Below are positions 190-23,851 of a stretch of 37,346 nt of DNA, piece by piece (the stretch's first letter is position 1; the number at the start of each line of letters is the position of its first letter). A program made the translations under genes and the position numbers. Where the stretch lies: contig CAZXAY010000004.1 in the NCBI GenBank assembly GCA_964638435.1, positions 1-37,346 of the forward strand. Reading direction: 5' to 3'. The notes beneath the pieces are model-generated. The model did not search any database. It worked only from the letters and a program-made list of their open reading frames with translations, and was not told the origin of the DNA. The stretch comes from an uncultured Candidatus Saccharibacteria bacterium (GTDB lineage: Bacteria > Patescibacteriota > UBA1384 > JAMDBS01 > CAZXAY01).

Positions 190-248
190 GTCCTAAAATA
201 AAATTGAGAATGCAATTCGAAAATTTTATGAAGGGCAAAATCCCATCT

Positions 249-459
249 ATGTTTTATAGTTATATTTTAAAATGCTTTGATAGTTCTTACTATCTTGGCT
301 CAACTAATAATTTAAGTAAAAAGAATTAAAGAACACAACTCGGGTAAAGCAGCCAATTATACTGCAAAAAGAAGGCCTTGCTTTATAGTATGGTATAATA
401 ATTTTCCAACCAGGCAACAAGCTATAAATGAGGAAATGAGATTAAAAAAAACTAAGTAG
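249..459 (+). pseudogene. GIY-YIG nuclease minigene with a +1 frameshift
   Basis: Frame 1 reads MFYSYILKCFDSSYYLGSTNNLSKK and then stops at 327-329. The +1 frame continues RIKEHNSGKAANYTAKRRPCFIVWYNNFPTRQQAINEEMRLKKTK and stops at 457-459. The shift falls in the A5 run at 318-322. Removing one A restores a canonical roughly 69-aa GIY-YIG protein. Confidence 0.75.
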
Positions 460-481
460 GATAAAAAAAGAAAACCTAATT

Positions 482-706
482 TTGTCTAAAAACACAGTTT
501 GGTTACATTACAAAGGAAATAAATATATAATTTTAAATATATTTGATAACCTAGTTTGTTACGCCGATTTGCAAGAATGGAAAGGATTTTCTAAAGATAA
601 AAAAGCTGTCGGAAATCAATTACAAGTTTGGCTACGCAATAAAAATCAATGGCTTGATATAATTGATAATAATAAATTAAGATTTAATCTAATAGAGGCT
701 CTGTAG
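482..706 (+). CDS. small DUF1653-like protein (TTG start; the 3' end overlaps the next tRNA by 10 nt)
   Basis: HYKGNKY...LVCYADL...VWLRNKNQWLD...KLRFNLI resembles the DUF1653 pattern (HFKGNLY...VVY.AL...WVRP...PRFEY) as recalled from memory. The start codon is uncertain. Confidence 0.45.
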   Translation: MSKNTVWLHYKGNKYIILNIFDNLVCYADLQEWKGFSKDKKAVGNQLQVWLRNKNQWLDIIDNNKLRFNLIEAL

Positions 707-13062: not shown

Positions 13063-13485
13063 TTACTTCTTGTATTTTAACCAAATAATCCTAATTAGTC
13101 CTATGGTTATTAATATAGCTAAAGTAATTGTTGTTGCAATATCAGGCACGTTGATTCCAACTTCTCCAAGATAATGGCGTACAAAACCACTTGAATAAGA
13201 TGGCAAATTTGCTTGCACTCTAATATTTTTCTCTAATGTTGTTAAAAAACAAGCACCAGTAATTATGAATGATAATGCTGTTAATCCTCCCAAAACTATA
13301 AAAATATTTTCTAGCTTCGGATAACGTTTTTTACTAAACAAAAACATTGGCCCGCCTAGCAAGCCAATCATAACTAAACCATGAAATATTGCAACAAAAT
13401 TTGCTAATGTTTGCATACATTTTTTGATTACACTTTCAACTAAATCTACTATTTCTTTATTGAAATACTCAATTTTTAAACACAT
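13063..13485 (-). CDS. membrane protein, DUF2784-like
   Basis: It has TM segments, and GACFLTTLEKNIR resembles the CPLT.LE..LR motif as recalled from memory. The start may instead be M24 at 13416. Confidence 0.45.
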   Translation of the reverse strand: MCLKIEYFNKEIVDLVESVIKKCMQTLANFVAIFHGLVMIGLLGGPMFLFSKKRYPKLENIFIVLGGLTALSFIITGACFLTTLEKNIRVQANLPSYSSGFVRHYLGEVGINVPDIATTITLAILITIGLIRIIWLKYKK

Positions 13486-13712
13486 ACCAAATCAGATTTT
13501 ATTAAATTACTTTCAGTTATCAATTTTTCTTTTTCTCTCCTTTTTAGTGATTTGATAACAAATTCTTCTCTTCTGGCCTCACTTTGCGAATATCCTTCGG
13601 CATTATAACATAATTTTACTGGCAATCTTCCCGATGTATATTTTGCACCTTTTTTATTATTATGTGCTTTTATCCTTTTTTCTAGATTAGTCGTAATCCC
13701 AGTATAATACAT
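13476..13712 (-). CDS. GIY-YIG nuclease minigene, N-terminally eroded
   Basis: YYTGITTNLEKRIKAHNNKKGAKYTSGRLPVKL is present. The expected MNKKWYV.. N-terminus lies just upstream in another frame (ATGAATAAAAAATGGTATGTA), and the GIY strand is missing. Confidence 0.6.
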   Translation of the reverse strand: MYYTGITTNLEKRIKAHNNKKGAKYTSGRLPVKLCYNAEGYSQSEARREEFVIKSLKRREKEKLITESNLIKSDLVCV

Positions 13713-13743
13713 ACCATTTTTTATTCATGATAATTTATTTGGA

Positions 13744-14213
13744 TTATTCTTTCTTTTTAAGATTATTCTTCCCTTTCGCACTTGCCAACGCTTGCAAGGC
13801 GACTTTGTCAAAATCAGTATCTTTTGTCGCCTCGACTTTATTATAGTTAATAAACTTTTTATCAGCAATTTCTTGCATTAGTTCATGAGATATTTTACCG
13901 GCATCTTGCAATATATTGCGATTGTTAATTGTTAAAAATCCATGTTATAATATTCTAGATCTCGCGAAACCTCACGCGAGCCTTCTTTTTGAACTGTAAA
14001 GAATTTCTTTACAGTTGAATTTTCCGACAGTTCTTCATCTTCTACTATATTTTTTATATGTTGGCCTATATTCTGCTTTGTCGTCTGAAAAAGCTCAGCT
14101 AAAGCATTTTGTGTAAGCCACACAGTATAGCCATCAAAACGCACATCAATTTTGGTCTCCCCAGTTGGTGATTTGTAAATAACTATTTGTGATTTTTTAT
14201 CATTTTTTTTCAT
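13744..14213 (-). pseudogene. RhuM-family remnant (N-terminal about 90 aa plus C-terminal about 60 aa in another frame; middle deleted)
   Basis: 13932-14213 (IVIYKSPTGETKIDVRFDGYTVWLTQNALAELF...YYN) parallels the N-terminus of the neighbouring full gene. 13744-13925 reads NILQDAGKISHELMQEIADKKFINYNKVE, which parallels its C-terminus. Confidence 0.6.
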
Positions 14214-14265
14214 AATTCTTTATTTTTTAATACCAACCTACTAATAATTTTATTGTGAATATTGT

Positions 14266-15315
14266 TCATAGTGTTGTAGTTGGTTTGATATTTGGTTTTT
14301 TAACCTTTTTTTCAACCTTTTTCTGGATTGTTTTAATCGTATCTAAATATGACTTTTCTACTGGACTCAAAATTTGTGTTTGATATTTTTTATACTCTGC
14401 TTCAGCTTTCTTTGTCGCCTCAGCATGACTCACGAAACCAGCTTCTGTAAGAATTTTTTTATCAAATACACCTATTAGCTTATCGAGTCGGACAATCCAA
14501 TCCTTCATATATGTCGGTTCATGATCCATTACTTTTACTTCCGCTAGATCAAAAAAGGCTGAAACCATGTTATTCAATACTTTTAACTCTTTTTCTGTAA
14601 GATAATTTTTCGCGATTACAATATCTTTTTTGCTTACACCGTTGTTTGAAAAACTCAGCAAACCCATAAATGGCTTGCCCGCATTAGCTCGCAGGGTAAT
14701 GACCTCGGCGGCGGTGTTGCCATGTGTAGCGTAGTGAAGTTTATTTTGTATGATTTTGAAAAACTTTATAGATTCTAAGGCTTTTGGGTTGTAATCAAGA
14801 CTAGTGGCATACAAATCAAGCACCTGACGATAAAGCACCTTTTCACTACTACGAATATCGCGAATACGATCAAGTAGCTCATACCAATATTTCCCACTAC
14901 CACTTTCTTTGAGAAAATCGTCATTCATGGTGAAACCTTTGATGATGTATTCACGAAGCCGTGTGGTTGCCCAAATACGAAACTGGGTCCCTTGAAGCGA
15001 TTTGACACGATATCCAACAGAAATAATTACATCAAGATTGTAGTATTTTACTTCTTTTTCCTGAGATTTCTCTTCAATTGCACCATGTTGAGTGGTATGT
15101 CGGAATTTCCGACACACCACTTTTTCATCTAATTCCCCTTCTTCAAATATATGAAAAATATGCTCAGTAATAGTTGTTCTCCCCTTACCAAAAAGTAATG
15201 CCATTTGCTCCTGTGTAAGCCAAACGGTTTCGTTTTCCATATGTACCTCAATACTCGGTGTTCCGTCGGCTGATTGGTAGATGATGATTTCGTTATTAGG
15301 TTGGTTGTTTTTCAT
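14266..15315 (-). CDS. RhuM-family (virulence RhuM-like) protein
   Basis: Motifs seen are IIIYQSADGTPSIEVHMENETVWLTQEQMALLF, YYNLDVIISVGYRVKS, TQFRIWAT and RDIRSSEK. The start was set at ATG 15315 to clear the tRNA. Confidence 0.7.
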   Translation of the reverse strand: MKNNQPNNEIIIYQSADGTPSIEVHMENETVWLTQEQMALLFGKGRTTITEHIFHIFEEGELDEKVVCRKFRHTTQHGAIEEKSQEKEVKYYNLDVIISVGYRVKSLQGTQFRIWATTRLREYIIKGFTMNDDFLKESGSGKYWYELLDRIRDIRSSEKVLYRQVLDLYATSLDYNPKALESIKFFKIIQNKLHYATHGNTAAEVITLRANAGKPFMGLLSFSNNGVSKKDIVIAKNYLTEKELKVLNNMVSAFFDLAEVKVMDHEPTYMKDWIVRLDKLIGVFDKKILTEAGFVSHAEATKKAEAEYKKYQTQILSPVEKSYLDTIKTIQKKVEKKVKKPNIKPTTTL

Positions 15316-15407
15316 AGAATTATTTGTTATCTTTACCCCGTTTTCACATATCGGTTTCGAACGGGCAGGCAAAGGCAACCTCTTTCAATTTCGCTGAATG
15401 TAAAACT

Positions 15408-15496
15408 TGGCGGAAGGGGAGGGATTCGAACCCTCGAAGCCTTGCGACTTACACGCTTTCCAAGCGTGCGCACTAGACCAACTATGCGACCCTTCC
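15408..15496 (-). tRNA. tRNA-Ser (anticodon GGA), long variable arm, CCA encoded
   Basis: The reverse complement reads GGAAGGG...CACGC-TTGGAAA-GCGTG, then a variable arm, then GAGGG-TTCGAAT-CCCTC-CCCTTCC-G-CCA. Confidence 0.85.
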
Positions 15497-21819: not shown

Positions 21820-22839
21820 CTATACCAACGCTCTTTTGATCATAAATTCGACATTCTTGTTAGTTTTAGTATAGACAATAGTTATCCCAGAATATTGAGA
21901 TTGCCAAACACGAAATACTTCATCGGCAAACCCTTGTCCAATAGTTTCTACCTGATCAAAATCTAAAATAATAGTATTAAATTTATCAAGCCCAGACATC
22001 ACCCTTTTGGCCCGTGAACGGGAAAGAAAACTAGTTCCATGCTGAAATAGTTTGACCTTAATTTCAGATTTATTAAAACTAAAATTATTATCAGTATATT
22101 TTTTAAAAATCTGGTTTAATTGTGTCTTGCTGGTTTGGTCAATTTCAAAACGTACCTTTGTACCTTGATGTCTAGCAATCTTTGTTATAAATATATCATT
22201 AATATTATTATCAAAAATCAACCCAATATCTGAGCTTTCGATAATCAGTTTATCAGCTACTTTAGAAGTAAAAAATATACCTTCTCCAGAATGTCTTTGA
22301 GGCATAGTGGTTTGTTTCCCCTTAAATAAGTCCTCTACTGCCTGCATTTCGTTTTTTAGCTTCTTTTTAATTTTAATATTATTAAAAATTCCCACACCTT
22401 GATCGGCAATCTCAAAACTAAATTTATCATCTACCAAGTTAGCATTTACCGTAACAAATTTAGATTTGGAATGGTCTATGGCGTTATTAAGCATCTCGGT
22501 AAAAGCATATTCTATAATAACACGAACATTTCTAGAAAGATTTGCCAAATGAATAATATTTTGTTCTAAATCAATAAAAACTTGATGTTCATGCAAATTT
22601 TTATTTAATATTCTCTTTTTAAATATATTCTGATTGTTTTGTAGTTTTTTAAGATTTTCTTTACTAAACAAAACATACTCGGCATTATGTGTTATGCCAA
22701 ATTTAATAATCCTTTTCTCTTCTAATAATTGGTTAACAATTCTATTTAAATACTGCCTGGAGACTTTTAATTTCTTGGTTAAAATAGATGATTTAACTAT
22801 CTTAGATTCTTTTATTAATTGTAATATTTTATTCTTCAT
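21820..22839 (-). CDS. wHTH / GHKL-type ATPase / STAS-like (DUF4325-type) fusion protein
   Basis: The N-terminal wHTH is SSILTKKLKVSRQYLNRIVNQLLEEKRI. ATPase motifs are the N-box EMLNNAIDHS, G1 DQGVGI and G2 GEGIFF. The C-terminal ILDFDQVETIGQGFADEVF matches the DUF4325 pattern from memory. Confidence 0.65.
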   Translation of the reverse strand: MKNKILQLIKESKIVKSSILTKKLKVSRQYLNRIVNQLLEEKRIIKFGITHNAEYVLFSKENLKKLQNNQNIFKKRILNKNLHEHQVFIDLEQNIIHLANLSRNVRVIIEYAFTEMLNNAIDHSKSKFVTVNANLVDDKFSFEIADQGVGIFNNIKIKKKLKNEMQAVEDLFKGKQTTMPQRHSGEGIFFTSKVADKLIIESSDIGLIFDNNINDIFITKIARHQGTKVRFEIDQTSKTQLNQIFKKYTDNNFSFNKSEIKVKLFQHGTSFLSRSRAKRVMSGLDKFNTIILDFDQVETIGQGFADEVFRVWQSQYSGITIVYTKTNKNVEFMIKRALV

Positions 22840-22843
22840 ATTT

Positions 22844-22898
22844 TAATTGTAAACTAAATCATTTTAATTGTCAACCTCTAACAATATAATTGTCAACT
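22844..22898. promoter_or_regulatory. three direct repeats TAATTGT(A/C)AA(C) spaced 21 and 23 bp apart, directly upstream of the 21820-22839 gene
   Basis: The minus strand reads GTTGACAATTA, GTTGACAATTA and TTTACAATTAAAAT-ATG. These are repeated -35-like or operator-like boxes. Confidence 0.45.
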
Positions 22899-22925
22899 AA
22901 AAAAACTACAAATAGTAGTTTTTTT
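22899..22925. terminator. bidirectional rho-independent terminator
   Basis: The sequence is AAAAAAACTAC-aaata-GTAGTTTTTTT. Confidence 0.7.
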
Positions 22926-22931
22926 ATAATC

Positions 22932-22978
22932 AGCCATGAACCAATTGGTAACCTACGGTTACCTGCTGGTTCATGGCT
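22932..22978. other. long nested hairpin overlapping the tRNA-Asn 3' end
   Basis: AGCCATGAACCA pairs with TGGTTCATGGCT, and GGTAACC-tac-GGTTACC lies inside. Confidence 0.6.
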
Positions 22979-23048
22979 CCGGAGCTCGGACTCGAACCGA
23001 GAACCCTCTCCTTAACAGGGAGATGCTCTGCCATTGAGCTACTCCGGA
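22974..23048 (-). tRNA. tRNA-Asn (anticodon GTT), CCA encoded
   Basis: The reverse complement reads TCCGGAG-TA-GCTCAATGGCAGAGC...CTGTTAA...CTCGG-TTCGAGT-CCGAG-CTCCGGA-G-CCA. Confidence 0.88.
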
Positions 23049-23056
23049 ATAAATTG

Positions 23057-23311
23057 TTATTTAATATTATCAAATAATTTTTTAATAAATTTTCTACCCG
23101 CGTGTGATTTTAAATACTTTTCTCTTTTGCATGCTTGTTGCTTATTGTCAAATGTTTCAGTATAAAATAATTCCCACGGTTTAAATTGGCTAGTATATTT
23201 ATTCGAGCCAGAATTATGTTCCTTTAGTCTTTTCTGAACATCTAATGTATAGCCAACATATGTCTTGGACATCACCTTACTTTTTAAAATATAAATATGA
23301 TAATTGATCAT
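23057..23311 (-). CDS. GIY-YIG nuclease minigene (84 aa), copy 1
   Basis: The protein is MINYHIYILKSKVMSKTYVGYTLDVQKRLKEHNSGSNKYTSQFKPWELFY...KREKYLKS. The start was set at the internal ATG, because the longer ORF reads through the leader and the tRNA fragment. Confidence 0.8.
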   Translation of the reverse strand: MINYHIYILKSKVMSKTYVGYTLDVQKRLKEHNSGSNKYTSQFKPWELFYTETFDNKQQACKREKYLKSHAGRKFIKKLFDNIK

Positions 23312-23399
23312 TGTCCGTCTTATGTCTAGATTACTATACAAAAGCCGAGACCTCGGCTCGCAATAATTTGCGAGACGGGAGCTACTCCGGAATAAATTG

Positions 23400-23654
23400 T
23401 TATTTAATATTATCAAATAATTTTTTAATAAATTTTCTACCCGCGTGTGATTTTAAATACTTTTCTCTTTTGCATGCTTGTTGCTTATTGTCAAATGTTT
23501 CAGTATAAAATAATTCCCACGGTTTAAATTGGCTAGTATATTTATTCGAGCCAGAATTATGTTCCTTTAGTCTTTTCTGAACATCTAATGTATAGCCAAC
23601 ATATGTCTTGGACATCACCTTACTTTTTAAAATATAAATATGATAATTGATCAT
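23400..23654 (-). CDS. GIY-YIG nuclease minigene (84 aa), copy 2 (identical)
   Basis: It is offset from copy 1 by exactly 343 nt. Confidence 0.8.
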   Translation of the reverse strand: MINYHIYILKSKVMSKTYVGYTLDVQKRLKEHNSGSNKYTSQFKPWELFYTETFDNKQQACKREKYLKSHAGRKFIKKLFDNIK

Positions 23655-23851
23655 TGTCCGTCTTATGTCTAGATTACTATACAAAAGCCGAGACCTCGGC
23701 TCGCAATAATTTGCGAGACGGGAGCTACTCCGGAATACTAAAAATATTTTAGCACTAAATTTATTTTTTTGCAACAGCTTGAAATATTTTAATTAATCCA
23801 TTGTATTAATTATTACGAGCTCGATATTAATTAATAAAGAAAGGAAAATTA

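Follow-up and report, generated by a model that had tools for sequence, protein, structure and literature searches.

Why are two identical copies of a very small nuclease gene, each headed by a scrap of tRNA-Asn, lined up in front of an intact tRNA-Asn gene? The arrangement lies in a 37,346-nucleotide stretch of DNA from an uncultured Candidatus Saccharibacteria bacterium (GenBank assembly GCA_964638435.1, contig CAZXAY010000004.1, positions 1 to 37,346), which we call the window. A preliminary description proposed that a minimal 343-bp GIY-YIG cassette had inserted after nt 13 of the tRNA gene, carrying a replacement copy of the tRNA 5' end, and had then been duplicated by exchange between 16-nt repeats. 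To answer the question we first examined the tandem itself, then compared it to related loci, and finally weighed the mechanisms that could have produced it.

The observation is correct for the assembled sequence. A tandem repeat search (TRF) finds a single array at 23036-23737 with a period of 343, 2.0 copies and 100% matches. Hence, the region on the minus strand is an exact 2 x 343 bp tandem plus 16 nt. The two 359-nt stretches 23379-23737 and 23036-23394 are identical, and the identity stops exactly at both ends. The 16-mer TATTCCGGAGTAGCTC, which is 3 leader nt plus tRNA nt 1-13, occurs three times on the minus strand. It occurs nowhere else in the window even with 2 mismatches, while 0 matches are expected by chance. 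The third copy runs into tRNA-Asn(GTT), which is called by both ARAGORN and Rfam (69.3 bits). In order of transcription the features are:

23746..23774 (-), a sigma-70-like promoter (TTGCAA, 17 nt, TAAAAT with TG before the second hexamer) that ends 8 nt upstream of the first 16-mer
23722..23737 (-), 16-mer copy 1, a tRNA 5' fragment
23658..23721 (-), a 64-nt GC-rich insert folding as a four-way junction, copy 1
23400..23654 (-), GIY-YIG ORF copy 1, 84 aa plus stop, of the Slx1/UPF0213 type; CAATG at its start is the remnant of the tRNA-Asn D-loop
23379..23394 (-), 16-mer copy 2
23315..23378 (-), four-way-junction insert, copy 2, identical to copy 1
23057..23311 (-), GIY-YIG ORF copy 2, identical to copy 1, with a TAA stop 5 nt before the third 16-mer
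23036..23051 (-), 16-mer copy 3, 3 nt of 5' leader plus nt 1-13 of the intact tRNA
22974..23048 (-), intact tRNA-Asn (GTT)
22898..22978 (-), a very stable 13+7 bp hairpin beginning in the GCCA end of the tRNA (22932-22978; -43 kcal/mol, z = -8.0), followed by an A-tract/stem/U-tract terminator (22898-22926), the likely end of the transcription unit

The promoter is a consensus match only. It is probably the original tRNA-Asn promoter, now driving both cassettes and the tRNA, and no terminator-like site lies between it and the tRNA.

A few details of the preliminary description need to be corrected. It presented the leader as nested hairpins within an outer stem that closes 3 nt before the ATG. 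The outer stem does close 3 nt (ACA) before the ATG, but the notation counted one CT twice and missed a third hairpin (P4). The insert consists of P1 (CCGT/ACGG), P2 (CTCGCAA/TTGCGAG, loop ATTA), P3 (CCGAG-GT-CTCGG) and P4 (CTTTTGT/ACATAAG). Hence, it is a four-way junction with no linker nucleotides. Of the four GIY-YIG genes in the window, three of which were said to sit next to tRNA genes, only the two tandem copies are intact. The copy between tRNA-fMet and tRNA-Met (about 204-470, +) is frameshifted. The copy at 13476-13712 (-) has lost its N-terminal strand and lies 1.7 kb from tRNA-Ser. Finally, the gene caller of the source annotation used an internal start, which gives 71 aa (P0001), whereas homologues show that the 84-aa start is the right one. 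In agreement with the preliminary description, no integrase or transposase domain was found among the neighbouring ORFs that were scanned, which are not all ORFs of the window. These neighbours are ABC/FtsX, DUF2680-like, HATPase/DUF4325 and a DEAD helicase.

What kind of protein do the ORFs encode? The 84-aa product matches the GIY-YIG profile PF01541 with 65.7 bits (cut-off 22.6, E 4.6e-18) over residues 4-73, without any accessory domain. Homologues are 79-100 aa long. Y7, Y18, G20, R28, H32, N33 and E64 are invariant in 24 homologues; these include the Tyr of GIY, the Tyr of YIG, the Arg, the His and the metal-binding Glu that are catalytic in the superfamily. In the alignment, in which the structurally equivalent position was not mapped, no invariant Asn lies after E64; a C-terminal Asn is typical of the UvrC+ lineage (PMC1564403). 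The AlphaFold model (pLDDT 92.9) has the element order E-E-H-H-E-H-H and shows the three-stranded sheet flanked by helices of the GIY-YIG fold. In the PDB the only sequence hits are 1zg2 (E 1.6e-9) and 1ywl (E 8e-7). In the structural comparison 1zg2 and Slx1 chains fill ranks 1-10 (TMq 0.55 for the 1zg2 NMR model and 0.64-0.71 for Slx1), ahead of UvrC (0.47) and I-TevI (0.52). Thus the protein is closest to the Slx1/UPF0213 structure-specific nucleases and not to I-TevI. NCBIfam, PHROGs and PADLOC give no specific family and no defence-system hit.

The comparison with other genomes is our main result. The same module, in single copy, sits at tRNA-Asn in at least 10 other Patescibacteria contigs. 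The module is present in the loci we number L001-L004, L135, L138, L140, L184 and L185. There the tRNA homology resumes after the insert (AATGGCAGAGC, nt 14-24) and supplies the ATG: the ORF start ACAATGGCAGAGC matches tRNA-Asn nt 14-24. The stop codon is often U8-A9-G10 of the intact tRNA, as in L001-L003 and L135. All 20 relatives' loci examined (11 from the genome scan and 9 looked up individually) have a tRNA gene within about 350 nt, and most have it immediately 3' on the same strand. L184 and L185, looked up later, also abut tRNA-Asn. A separate metagenome scan with a leader DNA pattern was swamped by chance matches in GC-rich contigs; among the matches it returned, only the contig L120 was real.

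The fold of the insert is conserved with covariation in relatives. In all, 93% of cells are paired, against 27-44% when the partners are slid. Four of 5 P2 pairs are compensatory, and 0 of 500 shuffles reach the observed covariation score. P2 forms a hairpin in 12 of 12 inserts and P4 in 9 of 12, with many different stem sequences. P2 and P4 covary, whereas P1 and P3 are conserved. We considered whether P3 is a copy of the tRNA-Asn T-stem, but P3 stays constant while the T-stems differ between genomes. No Rfam family matches the leader; only tRNA is found at gathering score, and nothing credible appears at E up to 10 in 22900-23800. Known ribozymes, riboswitches and group I introns (RF00028) are therefore set aside. 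It is also unlikely that the inserts are spliced introns of functional tRNAs, because every insert-bearing copy lacks something essential or sits next to an intact copy. Every copy of this type A insert seen lies at nt 12-14 of a tRNA-Asn sequence in the same orientation, and the window has only the two cassette copies. It does not behave like a dispersed MITE/REP-like palindrome.

Sister ORF clades carry other GC-rich palindromes and sit at tRNA-Arg, -Lys and -Gln in Omnitrophota, Bacteroidota and other phyla. Clade A has the four-way junction at tRNA-Asn. Clade B has CCTGCCTG..CAGGCAGG at Arg-CCT in Omnitrophota and Bacteroidota, at Asn in the second ORF of L135, and at Lys in locus L180. 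Clade C has TCCGG..CCGGA at tRNA-Lys. However, the type B palindrome also occurs widely without any GIY-YIG gene or tRNA nearby. It does behave like a dispersed element, and at least this insert may be an independent element.

In three loci a resident tRNA is split around an ORF plus a second intact tRNA. In L184 the 5' fragment TCCGGAG pairs with CTCCGGAGCCA of a degenerate copy downstream, and the intact tRNA between them has the acceptor stem TCCCCGA/TCGGGGA. In L010, GCCCTGC...GCAGGGC are split around the ORF plus an intact tRNA-Lys. In L007 the 3' part, with the same palindrome in its T-loop, lies after the intact tRNA. Arrays and nesting recur in independent assemblies: two cassette types lie in series at one tRNA-Asn in L135, L008 has a tandem with a decayed second copy, and L003 has a remnant copy. 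ORF-less copies of the insert occur at nt 13/14 of tRNA-Asn pseudogenes in L005 and L138, which are the products expected from recombination between the nt 14-24 repeats. Finally, L120 differs from the window at 25 of 183 ORF positions (12 synonymous and 9 non-synonymous codon differences) and at 0 of 3360 positions elsewhere, an ORF-only allele swap in an otherwise identical background.

The interpretation given in the preliminary description is therefore supported in part. The unit is a recurrent cassette tied to the 5' part of tRNA genes and not a chance slippage product. Two of the three conditions that had been named in advance as able to refute this were examined, and both came out in its favour: relatives are not found away from tRNAs, and the leader covaries. 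Secondary duplication between the repeats is plausible, given the recurrent arrays. Yet three points need revision. The leader is a separate structured insert at nt 13/14 of a longer tRNA fragment. In several loci (L184, L007 and L010) the cassette carries a whole second tRNA and splits the resident one, rather than carrying only a replacement 5' end. And the nuclease has no DNA-binding domain, so that sequence-specific homing of the I-TevI or Seg kind cannot be assumed. That the GIY-YIG protein is the mobility function, as the preliminary description suggested in the absence of other candidates, remains an inference.

To explain these observations, we propose that the 343-bp unit belongs to an apparently undescribed family of very small selfish cassettes, mobilised by recombination, that live inside partially duplicated tRNA genes without destroying them. 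We consider this somewhat more likely than not. What the sequences show is the anatomy: the promoter-like site is followed by tRNA nt 1-13 and then by the four-way-junction insert; in relatives tRNA nt 14-24 follow, and their ATG starts the ORF, which runs up to, or into, the 5' end of an intact tRNA-Asn. Judged by its intact sequence the tRNA therefore stays functional, but it would now be transcribed through the cassette. The mechanism, including any nuclease activity and mobility, we infer. In this view, the nuclease breaks or nicks tRNA-gene DNA. Because its predicted fold is closest to the branched-DNA nuclease Slx1, it would probably act at a structured or cruciform-prone site rather than read a long sequence. 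Repair would then copy the cassette from a filled copy, using the tRNA sequence as homology on both sides. If the right-hand exchange falls inside the cassette-side intact tRNA, the result is the window's layout, fragment, insert, ORF and tRNA. If it falls in a further downstream copy, the resident tRNA ends up split around the ORF and a second intact tRNA, as seen in L184, L007 and L010.

The structured insert would be the cassette's own cis element, since each ORF clade has its own insert type. Its likely roles are to interrupt the tRNA homology or target in the left-over fragment and, as RNA, to close over the Shine-Dalgarno region and start codon to throttle translation. The exact tandem would be a recent secondary event, either by unequal exchange between the direct repeats or by re-insertion into the regenerated intact tRNA. 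The decayed GIY-YIG copies in the window fit the invasion-and-decay cycle of selfish genes.

Several results do not sit easily with this proposal. No empty tRNA-Asn site in a close relative was found, although the one search, through the upstream neighbour gene, returned only two homologues, and the single contig looked up ends 150 nt upstream of the gene. All type A cassettes sit at tRNA-Asn in Patescibacteria, which long vertical inheritance could also explain. In most type A loci the upstream 13-mer matches the adjacent tRNA although acceptor stems differ between genomes, which fits in-situ duplication or concerted evolution as well as it fits homing. The intact tRNA next to the cassette keeps any target that lies within the tRNA, which leaves the immunity of the filled allele unexplained. 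Furthermore, no nuclease activity or substrate is known for this protein family (PMC1564403).

Alternatively, the module could be resident and non-mobile, which we consider unlikely but the most serious rival. The Slx1-like nuclease would have a host function tied to tRNA genes, such as processing branched or cruciform DNA or R-loops at very highly transcribed tRNA loci, or a role at the RNA level. It would be co-transcribed from the tRNA promoter, with the leader as a cis-regulatory RNA, and the fragments, palindromes and tandems would be by-products of recombination at a fragile locus, inherited vertically and kept alike by concerted evolution. The restriction of type A to tRNA-Asn in one superphylum and the 13-mer that usually tracks the adjacent tRNA agree with this. 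So do purifying selection on the ORFs, the overlap of the leader's 3' strand with the SD-like GGA/AGGA just before the ATG, the very large size of the family (8365 representative clusters at E <= 1e-3), and a reported fusion of this family to the tRNA D-loop methyltransferase TrmH (PMC1564403). However, frameshifted or truncated copies, two unrelated cassette types in series at one tRNA, resident tRNAs split around an ORF plus a second tRNA of different sequence, one ORF clade with its palindrome at different tRNAs in different phyla, and the ORF-only allele swap speak against it. Plain slippage or unequal crossing-over of an ordinary gene, the default of the preliminary description, accounts for an exact duplication bounded by a short direct repeat. 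As a full explanation it is very unlikely and contradicted by the comparative data: the state before duplication already needs a 16-nt copy of the tRNA 5' end upstream of the leader, and the same layout is conserved in single copy in many genomes. For the second copy only, it remains compatible with our proposal. That copy could also be an assembly artefact, a repeat loop traversed twice. The two-copy state rests on one assembly, the copies are 100% identical, and the independent assembly of a nearly identical strain (L120) breaks inside the ORF, which shows that assemblers struggle here. Yet we think an artefact improbable, since L008 and L135 have tandem or serial cassettes with diverged copies in other assemblies, and ORF products of about 200 aa with two GIY-YIG stretches exist in public data. 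A single cassette would not change the main finding.

Two further mechanisms appear very improbable. Site-specific integration through a small circular intermediate, with a recombinase encoded elsewhere and the tRNA 5' repeat as attachment core, would explain tandem arrays, which are typical of repeated integration, and the direct repeats of 16-17 nt, including 2-4 nt of tRNA leader, that flank the unit in the window, L001 and L140. However, no integrase is found in the cassette or among the neighbouring ORFs scanned, the tRNA homology in relatives continues beyond the insert, so the repeat is not a fixed core, and repeat lengths vary from 7 to about 95 nt between loci. The most extreme possibility is an RNA-guided GIY-YIG system, in which the tRNA 5' fragment fused to the four-way-junction scaffold guides the nuclease, probably as a multimer, to the complementary strand of an uninterrupted tRNA-Asn gene. 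The order of fragment, structured RNA and nuclease ORF, with a host-flank-derived fragment as in OMEGA systems, fits, as does a promoter placed so that the RNA starts at the fragment. In L184 the fragment matches the split resident tRNA and not the cassette-borne one. Against this, the protein is a single 84-aa domain with no known RNA-binding part, in types B and C the insert lies inside a longer tRNA fragment rather than after a free 5' guide, in the window the would-be guide matches the adjacent intact tRNA, which would mean self-targeting, and L005 has only a 7-nt fragment and no scaffold.

If our reading is right, it gives a concrete biological context to a very large family of minimal GIY-YIG proteins of unknown function, together with candidate substrates: the tRNA gene, the four-way-junction insert and branched DNA. 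More broadly, but only tentatively, the bacterial UPF0213 proteins, without a known function for about 20 years, may be the nucleases of a cross-phylum class of tRNA-gene-invading cassettes. Each clade would be paired with its own structured palindrome, and the cassettes would spread by splitting or partly duplicating the target tRNA gene instead of being spliced out. The reading also describes a way for a selfish element to occupy an essential RNA gene without splicing, by duplicating part of the gene or bringing a replacement copy. It would explain a class of tRNA gene fragments, insert-laden tRNA pseudogenes and contig breaks at tRNA loci in Patescibacteria, Omnitrophota and Bacteroidota assemblies. 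It would also warn annotators that these ORFs start inside a tRNA fragment and may end inside the next tRNA. Full-text literature searches, in which most subscription journals were not covered so that a prior description cannot be excluded, found no account of GIY-YIG cassettes in partially duplicated tRNA genes and no paper linking the Slx1-like proteins to tRNA genes, tRNA fragments or palindromic inserts.

How does the cassette compare to known systems? The closest functional analogue of an ORF plus tRNA cassette is SegB of phage T4, a free-standing GIY-YIG homing endonuclease in the T4 tRNA gene cluster (PMC2330249). Its gene lies between tRNA genes and not inside an intron, it recognises a tRNA-gene motif, the T-psi-C stem-loop, and it spreads together with neighbouring tRNA genes by break repair. 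The window's ORF likewise lies between a tRNA fragment and an intact tRNA and not in an intron. However, SegB belongs to the HEase/UvrC branch and has a 27-bp recognition site (PMC2330249). Seg-type proteins join the GIY-YIG domain to a sequence-reading DNA-binding region, about 200-250 aa in total, and SegB carries such a region, whereas the window protein is a bare 84-aa domain of the Slx1 branch. SegB loci have no partial tRNA duplication and no structured palindromic insert. The window's host is cellular (Patescibacteria-like), and neither the type A leader nor the type A protein occurs in the viral collection IMG/VR, so that the cassette is not phage-borne as far as that collection shows.

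Slx1 and the prokaryotic Slx1-like UPF0213/COG2827 proteins (PDB 1zg2 BH0048, 1ywl EF2693; Slx1-Slx4 6sei, 7cq4) are the best matches in sequence and structure. The prokaryotic family is described as a minimal stand-alone GIY-YIG domain (PMC1564403), as found here. Slx1 cuts branched DNA, and the cassette's cis element folds as a four-way junction, but eukaryotic Slx1 needs a RING domain and Slx4. OMEGA systems (IscB/TnpB with omega RNA; PMC13565253) also have a nuclease ORF preceded by a conserved structured RNA that adjoins host-flank sequence at the element border. OMEGA nucleases contain RuvC, with or without HNH, and are several hundred residues long. Without evidence here for RNA guidance, this is a resemblance in layout only.

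Integrase-borne genomic islands and prophages in tRNA genes (discussed in PMC9897764) are likewise bounded by a direct repeat of part of a tRNA gene, leaving one intact tRNA and one fragment. Those elements are kilobases long and encode a tyrosine or serine integrase. They usually duplicate the 3' part of the tRNA. The example in PMC9897764 has a 44-bp repeat, given without assignment to either end. Here the unit is 343 bp with one ORF, has no integrase, duplicates the 5' part, and its fragment carries a structured insert. Group I introns with GIY-YIG homing endonucleases of the I-TevI type, and bacterial tRNA group I introns (PMC3984707), also place a GIY-YIG gene and a structured RNA element within a gene for a structured RNA while preserving the function of the host gene. 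In our case no group I intron model matches, the structured element is 50-75 nt, and function is preserved by duplicating part of the gene or bringing a whole tRNA, not by splicing. Finally, in fractured genes (PMC2677866) a host gene is physically split around a homing endonuclease gene, and function is restored by split inteins at the protein level. Here a second intact tRNA copy substitutes for the split one.

The preliminary description of a perfect tandem of small GIY-YIG units in front of tRNA-Asn is confirmed in the sequence as assembled. On the minus strand, 23036-23737 is an exact tandem with period 343, 2.0 copies and 100% identity. The two 359-nt stretches 23379-23737 and 23036-23394 are identical, and the identity ends exactly at both borders. 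The 16-mer TATTCCGGAGTAGCTC occurs three times and has no near-match elsewhere in the window. The third copy continues into an intact tRNA-Asn(GTT) at 22974-23048. Read 5' to 3', each unit consists of four parts:

3 nt of tRNA leader plus tRNA nt 1-13
a 64-nt GC-rich segment
ACA
an 84-codon ORF

In copy 2, TAA and 5 nt precede the next 16-mer. The 64-nt segment is CCGT|CTCGCAA-atta-TTGCGAG|CCGAG-gt-CTCGG|CTTTTGT...ACATAAG|ACGG, a closed four-way junction without linker nucleotides. It is the minimum-energy fold with both RNA and DNA parameters.

A sigma-70-like promoter sequence (TTGCAA, 17 nt, TG-n-TAAAAT) ends 8 nt before the first 16-mer, and no terminator-like site lies between it and the tRNA. 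The tRNA-Asn therefore appears to be transcribed through both cassettes. At 22898-22978 (minus strand) a very stable 13+7 bp hairpin starts in the GCCA end of tRNA-Asn (-43 kcal/mol with the terminator, z = -8) and is followed by a bidirectional A-tract/U-tract terminator. Three copies of a 21-nt unit containing TTGACAATTA / TTTACAATTA lie at 22840-22902, just upstream of the HATPase/DUF4325 gene (21820-22839, minus strand), and look like an operator or promoter array. The surrounding genes are cellular: DnaG, holA, a DEAD-box helicase and an ABC/FtsX transporter. The G+C content of the window is 34%, and the nearest relatives are named Patescibacteria.

The ORF matches PF01541 at E 4.6e-18. 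In the PDB it hits only the two UPF0213 proteins, BH0048 (1zg2) and EF2693 (1ywl). A confident predicted model (pLDDT 92.9) is closest to 1zg2 and to the nuclease domain of Slx1 in its complexes with branched DNA, where TM is 0.64-0.71, rmsd about 2-3 A and identity 27-32%. These rank ahead of UvrC and I-TevI. Y7, Y18, R28, H32 and E64 are invariant in 24 homologues. According to the 2006 phylogenomic survey of the superfamily, these prokaryotic Slx1-like proteins are the 'minimal variant' of the fold, with no accessory domain and no known function (PMC1564403). The family is large, with 8365 representative clusters at E <= 1e-3 and 966 at E <= 1e-10. These include several predicted proteins with two GIY-YIG stretches (P0063, P0070 and P0109, about 205-214 aa), which are probably read-through products of tandem cassettes like the one in the window.

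Contigs that encode close homologues (60-68% identity) carry the same layout in single copy: a copy of the tRNA-Asn 5' end, the four-way-junction segment, the ORF and then an intact tRNA-Asn. These are contigs L001, L002, L003, L004, L135, L138, L140, L184 and L185. Two features that have decayed in the window are plain in these relatives. After the structured segment the tRNA sequence resumes, and the ORF start ACAATGGCAGAGCA equals tRNA-Asn nt 13-24 (CAATGGCAGAGCA). The segment is therefore an insert at nt 13/14 of a longer tRNA fragment, and the start codon comes from the D-loop. In the window only CAATG survives. In addition, the ORF often ends at the TAG formed by U8-A9-G10 of the intact tRNA, as in L001, L002, L003 and L135. 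The same 'stop codon inside the tRNA' arrangement is seen in the window at 482-706 (plus strand), where a 74-aa ORF with a weak DUF1653 match (E 9e-4, below the cut-off) has a TAG stop that is nt 8-10 of tRNA-Met (697-771).

The association with tRNA genes is general. All 11 loci returned by a protein-based scan of one genome per species have a tRNA gene next to the ORF. They come from Saccharibacteria, Berkelbacteria, Omnitrophota, Bacteroidales, Lentimicrobiaceae, Curtissbacteria, Levyibacteriota, Opitutales and Neomarinimicrobiota. All 9 homologues looked up individually also have a tRNA gene next to the ORF, as do L184 and L185, which were looked up later. In two loci (L006 600-800 and L180 824-900) the tRNA that follows the cassette breaks off at the anticodon loop into a long structured sequence. 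ARAGORN does not call a tRNA at either place, and in L006 Rfam finds neither a tRNA nor a group I intron. This may be another kind of insertion.

The insert is a conserved structure. On nine type-A sequences (those with the four-way junction) the consensus fold has P1, P2 and P3. Overall 93% of cells are paired, against 27-44% when the 3' partners are slid. Four of the five P2 pairs show compensatory changes, and none of 500 column shuffles reaches the observed covariation score. Among 12 tabulated inserts, P2 is a hairpin in all 12, with at least six different stems, P4 is a hairpin in 9, and P1 (CCGT/ACGG) and P3 (CCGAG-NN-CTCGG) are conserved in sequence. The sample is small and partly related, so this is good but not overwhelming evidence. 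Neither does it decide between an RNA structure and a DNA structure. A few G-T appositions would be mismatches on the other strand (P3 in L135 and L138 and, by inspection, P1 in L184), and the 3' strand of P1 overlaps the SD-like GGA/AGGA before the ATG; both points lean towards a role as RNA. The fixed position and the Slx1-like protein, in contrast, lean towards a role as DNA. No Rfam family matches the insert.

A neighbour-joining tree of 20 ORFs groups them by the kind of insert they carry, not by host or tRNA identity. Clade A has the four-way junction at tRNA-Asn. Clade B has the palindrome CCTGCCTG...CAGGCAGG inside the D-arm region of a longer tRNA fragment (nt 1 to about 38), and its ATG comes just after the anticodon loop. 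It occurs at tRNA-Arg(CCT) in Omnitrophota (L007, L011) and Bacteroidota (L008, L009), at a further Arg(CCT) in L146, at tRNA-Asn in a Patescibacteria contig (L135 ORF2), and at a tRNA-Lys-like gene in L180. Clade C has TCCGG..CCGGA hairpins at tRNA-Lys (L010, L013). A tRNA-Gln cassette (L141) has a 70-nt insert of its own. In L135 a type-A and a type-B cassette lie one after the other in front of a single intact tRNA-Asn.

Several loci show resident tRNAs that are split. In L184 the upstream fragment TCCGGAGTAGCTT does not match the adjacent intact tRNA-Asn (TCCCCGA...TCGGGGAGCCA). Instead it is complementary to the 3' acceptor strand CTCCGGAGCCA of a degenerate, insert-laden tRNA-Asn copy that lies after the intact one. 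In L010 the strands GCCCTGC and GCAGGGC of one tRNA-Lys are separated by the ORF plus a different, intact tRNA-Lys, and a direct repeat of about 40 nt that includes the hairpin flanks the insertion. In L007 the 3' part of the split tRNA-Arg follows the intact one and carries the same palindrome in its T-loop. Degenerate second tRNA copies or 3' remnants lie downstream in L003, L005, L011, L135, L138 and L185, but none is recognisable in the window.

ORF-less inserts sit at nt 13/14 of tRNA-Asn pseudogenes in L005 and L138. Recombination between the nt 14-24 repeats of a full cassette would give exactly such a product. The L138 copy (596-778), a second tRNA-Asn copy, carries three ORF-less inserts, in the D-loop, the anticodon loop (after U36) and the T-loop. 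Each is bounded by TCCG(T/C)C...GACGG(A), and all four tRNA stems are still recognisable.

Arrays and decay are found as well. L003 has a truncated extra leader. L008, from a Lentimicrobiaceae genome, has two units at 1340-2290; the repeated unit includes the tRNA's upstream flank (TTACTTTTGCAACCCGTTA), so each cassette copy has its own copy of that flank, and the second copy carries two palindromes and a frameshift. Besides the two intact GIY-YIG genes, the window holds a frameshifted and a truncated one, and it may hold the tail of another tRNA fragment:

204-470, plus strand, between tRNA-fMet (41-115) and tRNA-Met (697-771): a frameshifted GIY-YIG pseudogene, with the N-terminal part in ORF 204-329 and the rest in another frame at 319-444; no GC-rich insert or tRNA fragment was recognised next to it
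13476-15496, minus strand: a GIY-YIG gene lacking its first strand (13476-13712) near a RhuM-family gene (14266-15378) and a RhuM fragment (13932-14213), all directly downstream of tRNA-Ser (15408-15496), which looks like a small island at that tRNA
1-8: GAGTAGCT, identical to tRNA-Asn nt 5-12 and followed by TGCTTCGAACACCCC; this may be the tail of another tRNA fragment, cut by the window edge

Finally, the ORF alone can differ between otherwise identical sequences. Contig L120, from a different assembly, is identical to the window at all 3360 positions outside the ORF, including promoter, 16-mer and insert. It differs at 25 of the 183 ORF positions it covers, starting right after the ATG, with 12 synonymous and 9 non-synonymous codon differences. 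The contig also ends inside the ORF.

The simplest account of these observations is a selfish cassette that spreads by break repair, with the tRNA sequence as homology on both sides. In this view the cassette keeps the host viable because an intact tRNA is always regenerated or brought along. Different right-hand exchange points would give the window-type layout or the split-tRNA layout. Exchange between the short repeats would give ORF-less inserts, precise loss, or tandem duplication as in the window, and re-insertion into the regenerated tRNA would give the same tandem. The anatomy, its conservation, the covariation, the pairing of clades with inserts, the split tRNAs and the allele swap are shown by our analysis. 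In contrast, that the nuclease makes the initiating cut, where it would cut and what the insert does are inferences. The account also meets difficulties. The intact tRNA next to the cassette retains any target that lies within the tRNA, the protein has no obvious way to read sequence, and no empty site was found.

Furthermore, the type-B palindrome may be an independent element that the cassettes have picked up. It is also found in 35 IMG/VR contigs (L149-L183, with G+C from 38 to 68%), where the perfect 20-nt palindrome CCTGCCTGCCGGCAGGCAGG occurs mostly without a GIY-YIG gene or tRNA nearby. Some copies have 7-8-bp flanking direct repeats (L167 TTGCGGA, L151 CACAGAGA), one sits in the variable loop of a tRNA-Met (L173 2239-2330), and one contig holds several copies (six over L169, L176 and L177). 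It looks like a promiscuous mini-palindrome.

The preliminary interpretation, a tiny cassette inserted after nt 13 of the tRNA gene that carries a replacement copy of the tRNA 5' end, is right in outline and needs revision: the structured segment is an insert within a longer tRNA fragment, and at some loci a resident tRNA is split around the ORF plus a second, intact tRNA. The pattern is of interest because it is general, crosses phyla and is attached to a large protein family of unknown function.

Full-text literature searches found no description of the arrangement seen here, although the collection searched was incomplete. We would place the element among the homing-type selfish endonuclease cassettes, with a protein that is a member of the Slx1-like/UPF0213 GIY-YIG family. 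Integrase-borne islands also leave a tRNA fragment, but they are kilobases long and encode an integrase (PMC9897764). Such islands usually duplicate the 3' part of the tRNA. Group I introns preserve the host gene by splicing. The closest functional analogue is T4 SegB, a free-standing GIY-YIG homing endonuclease in a tRNA cluster, which recognises a tRNA T-loop motif and drags neighbouring tRNA genes along (PMC2330249). However, SegB is a larger enzyme of another branch of the superfamily, and its locus has neither tRNA fragments nor structured inserts.
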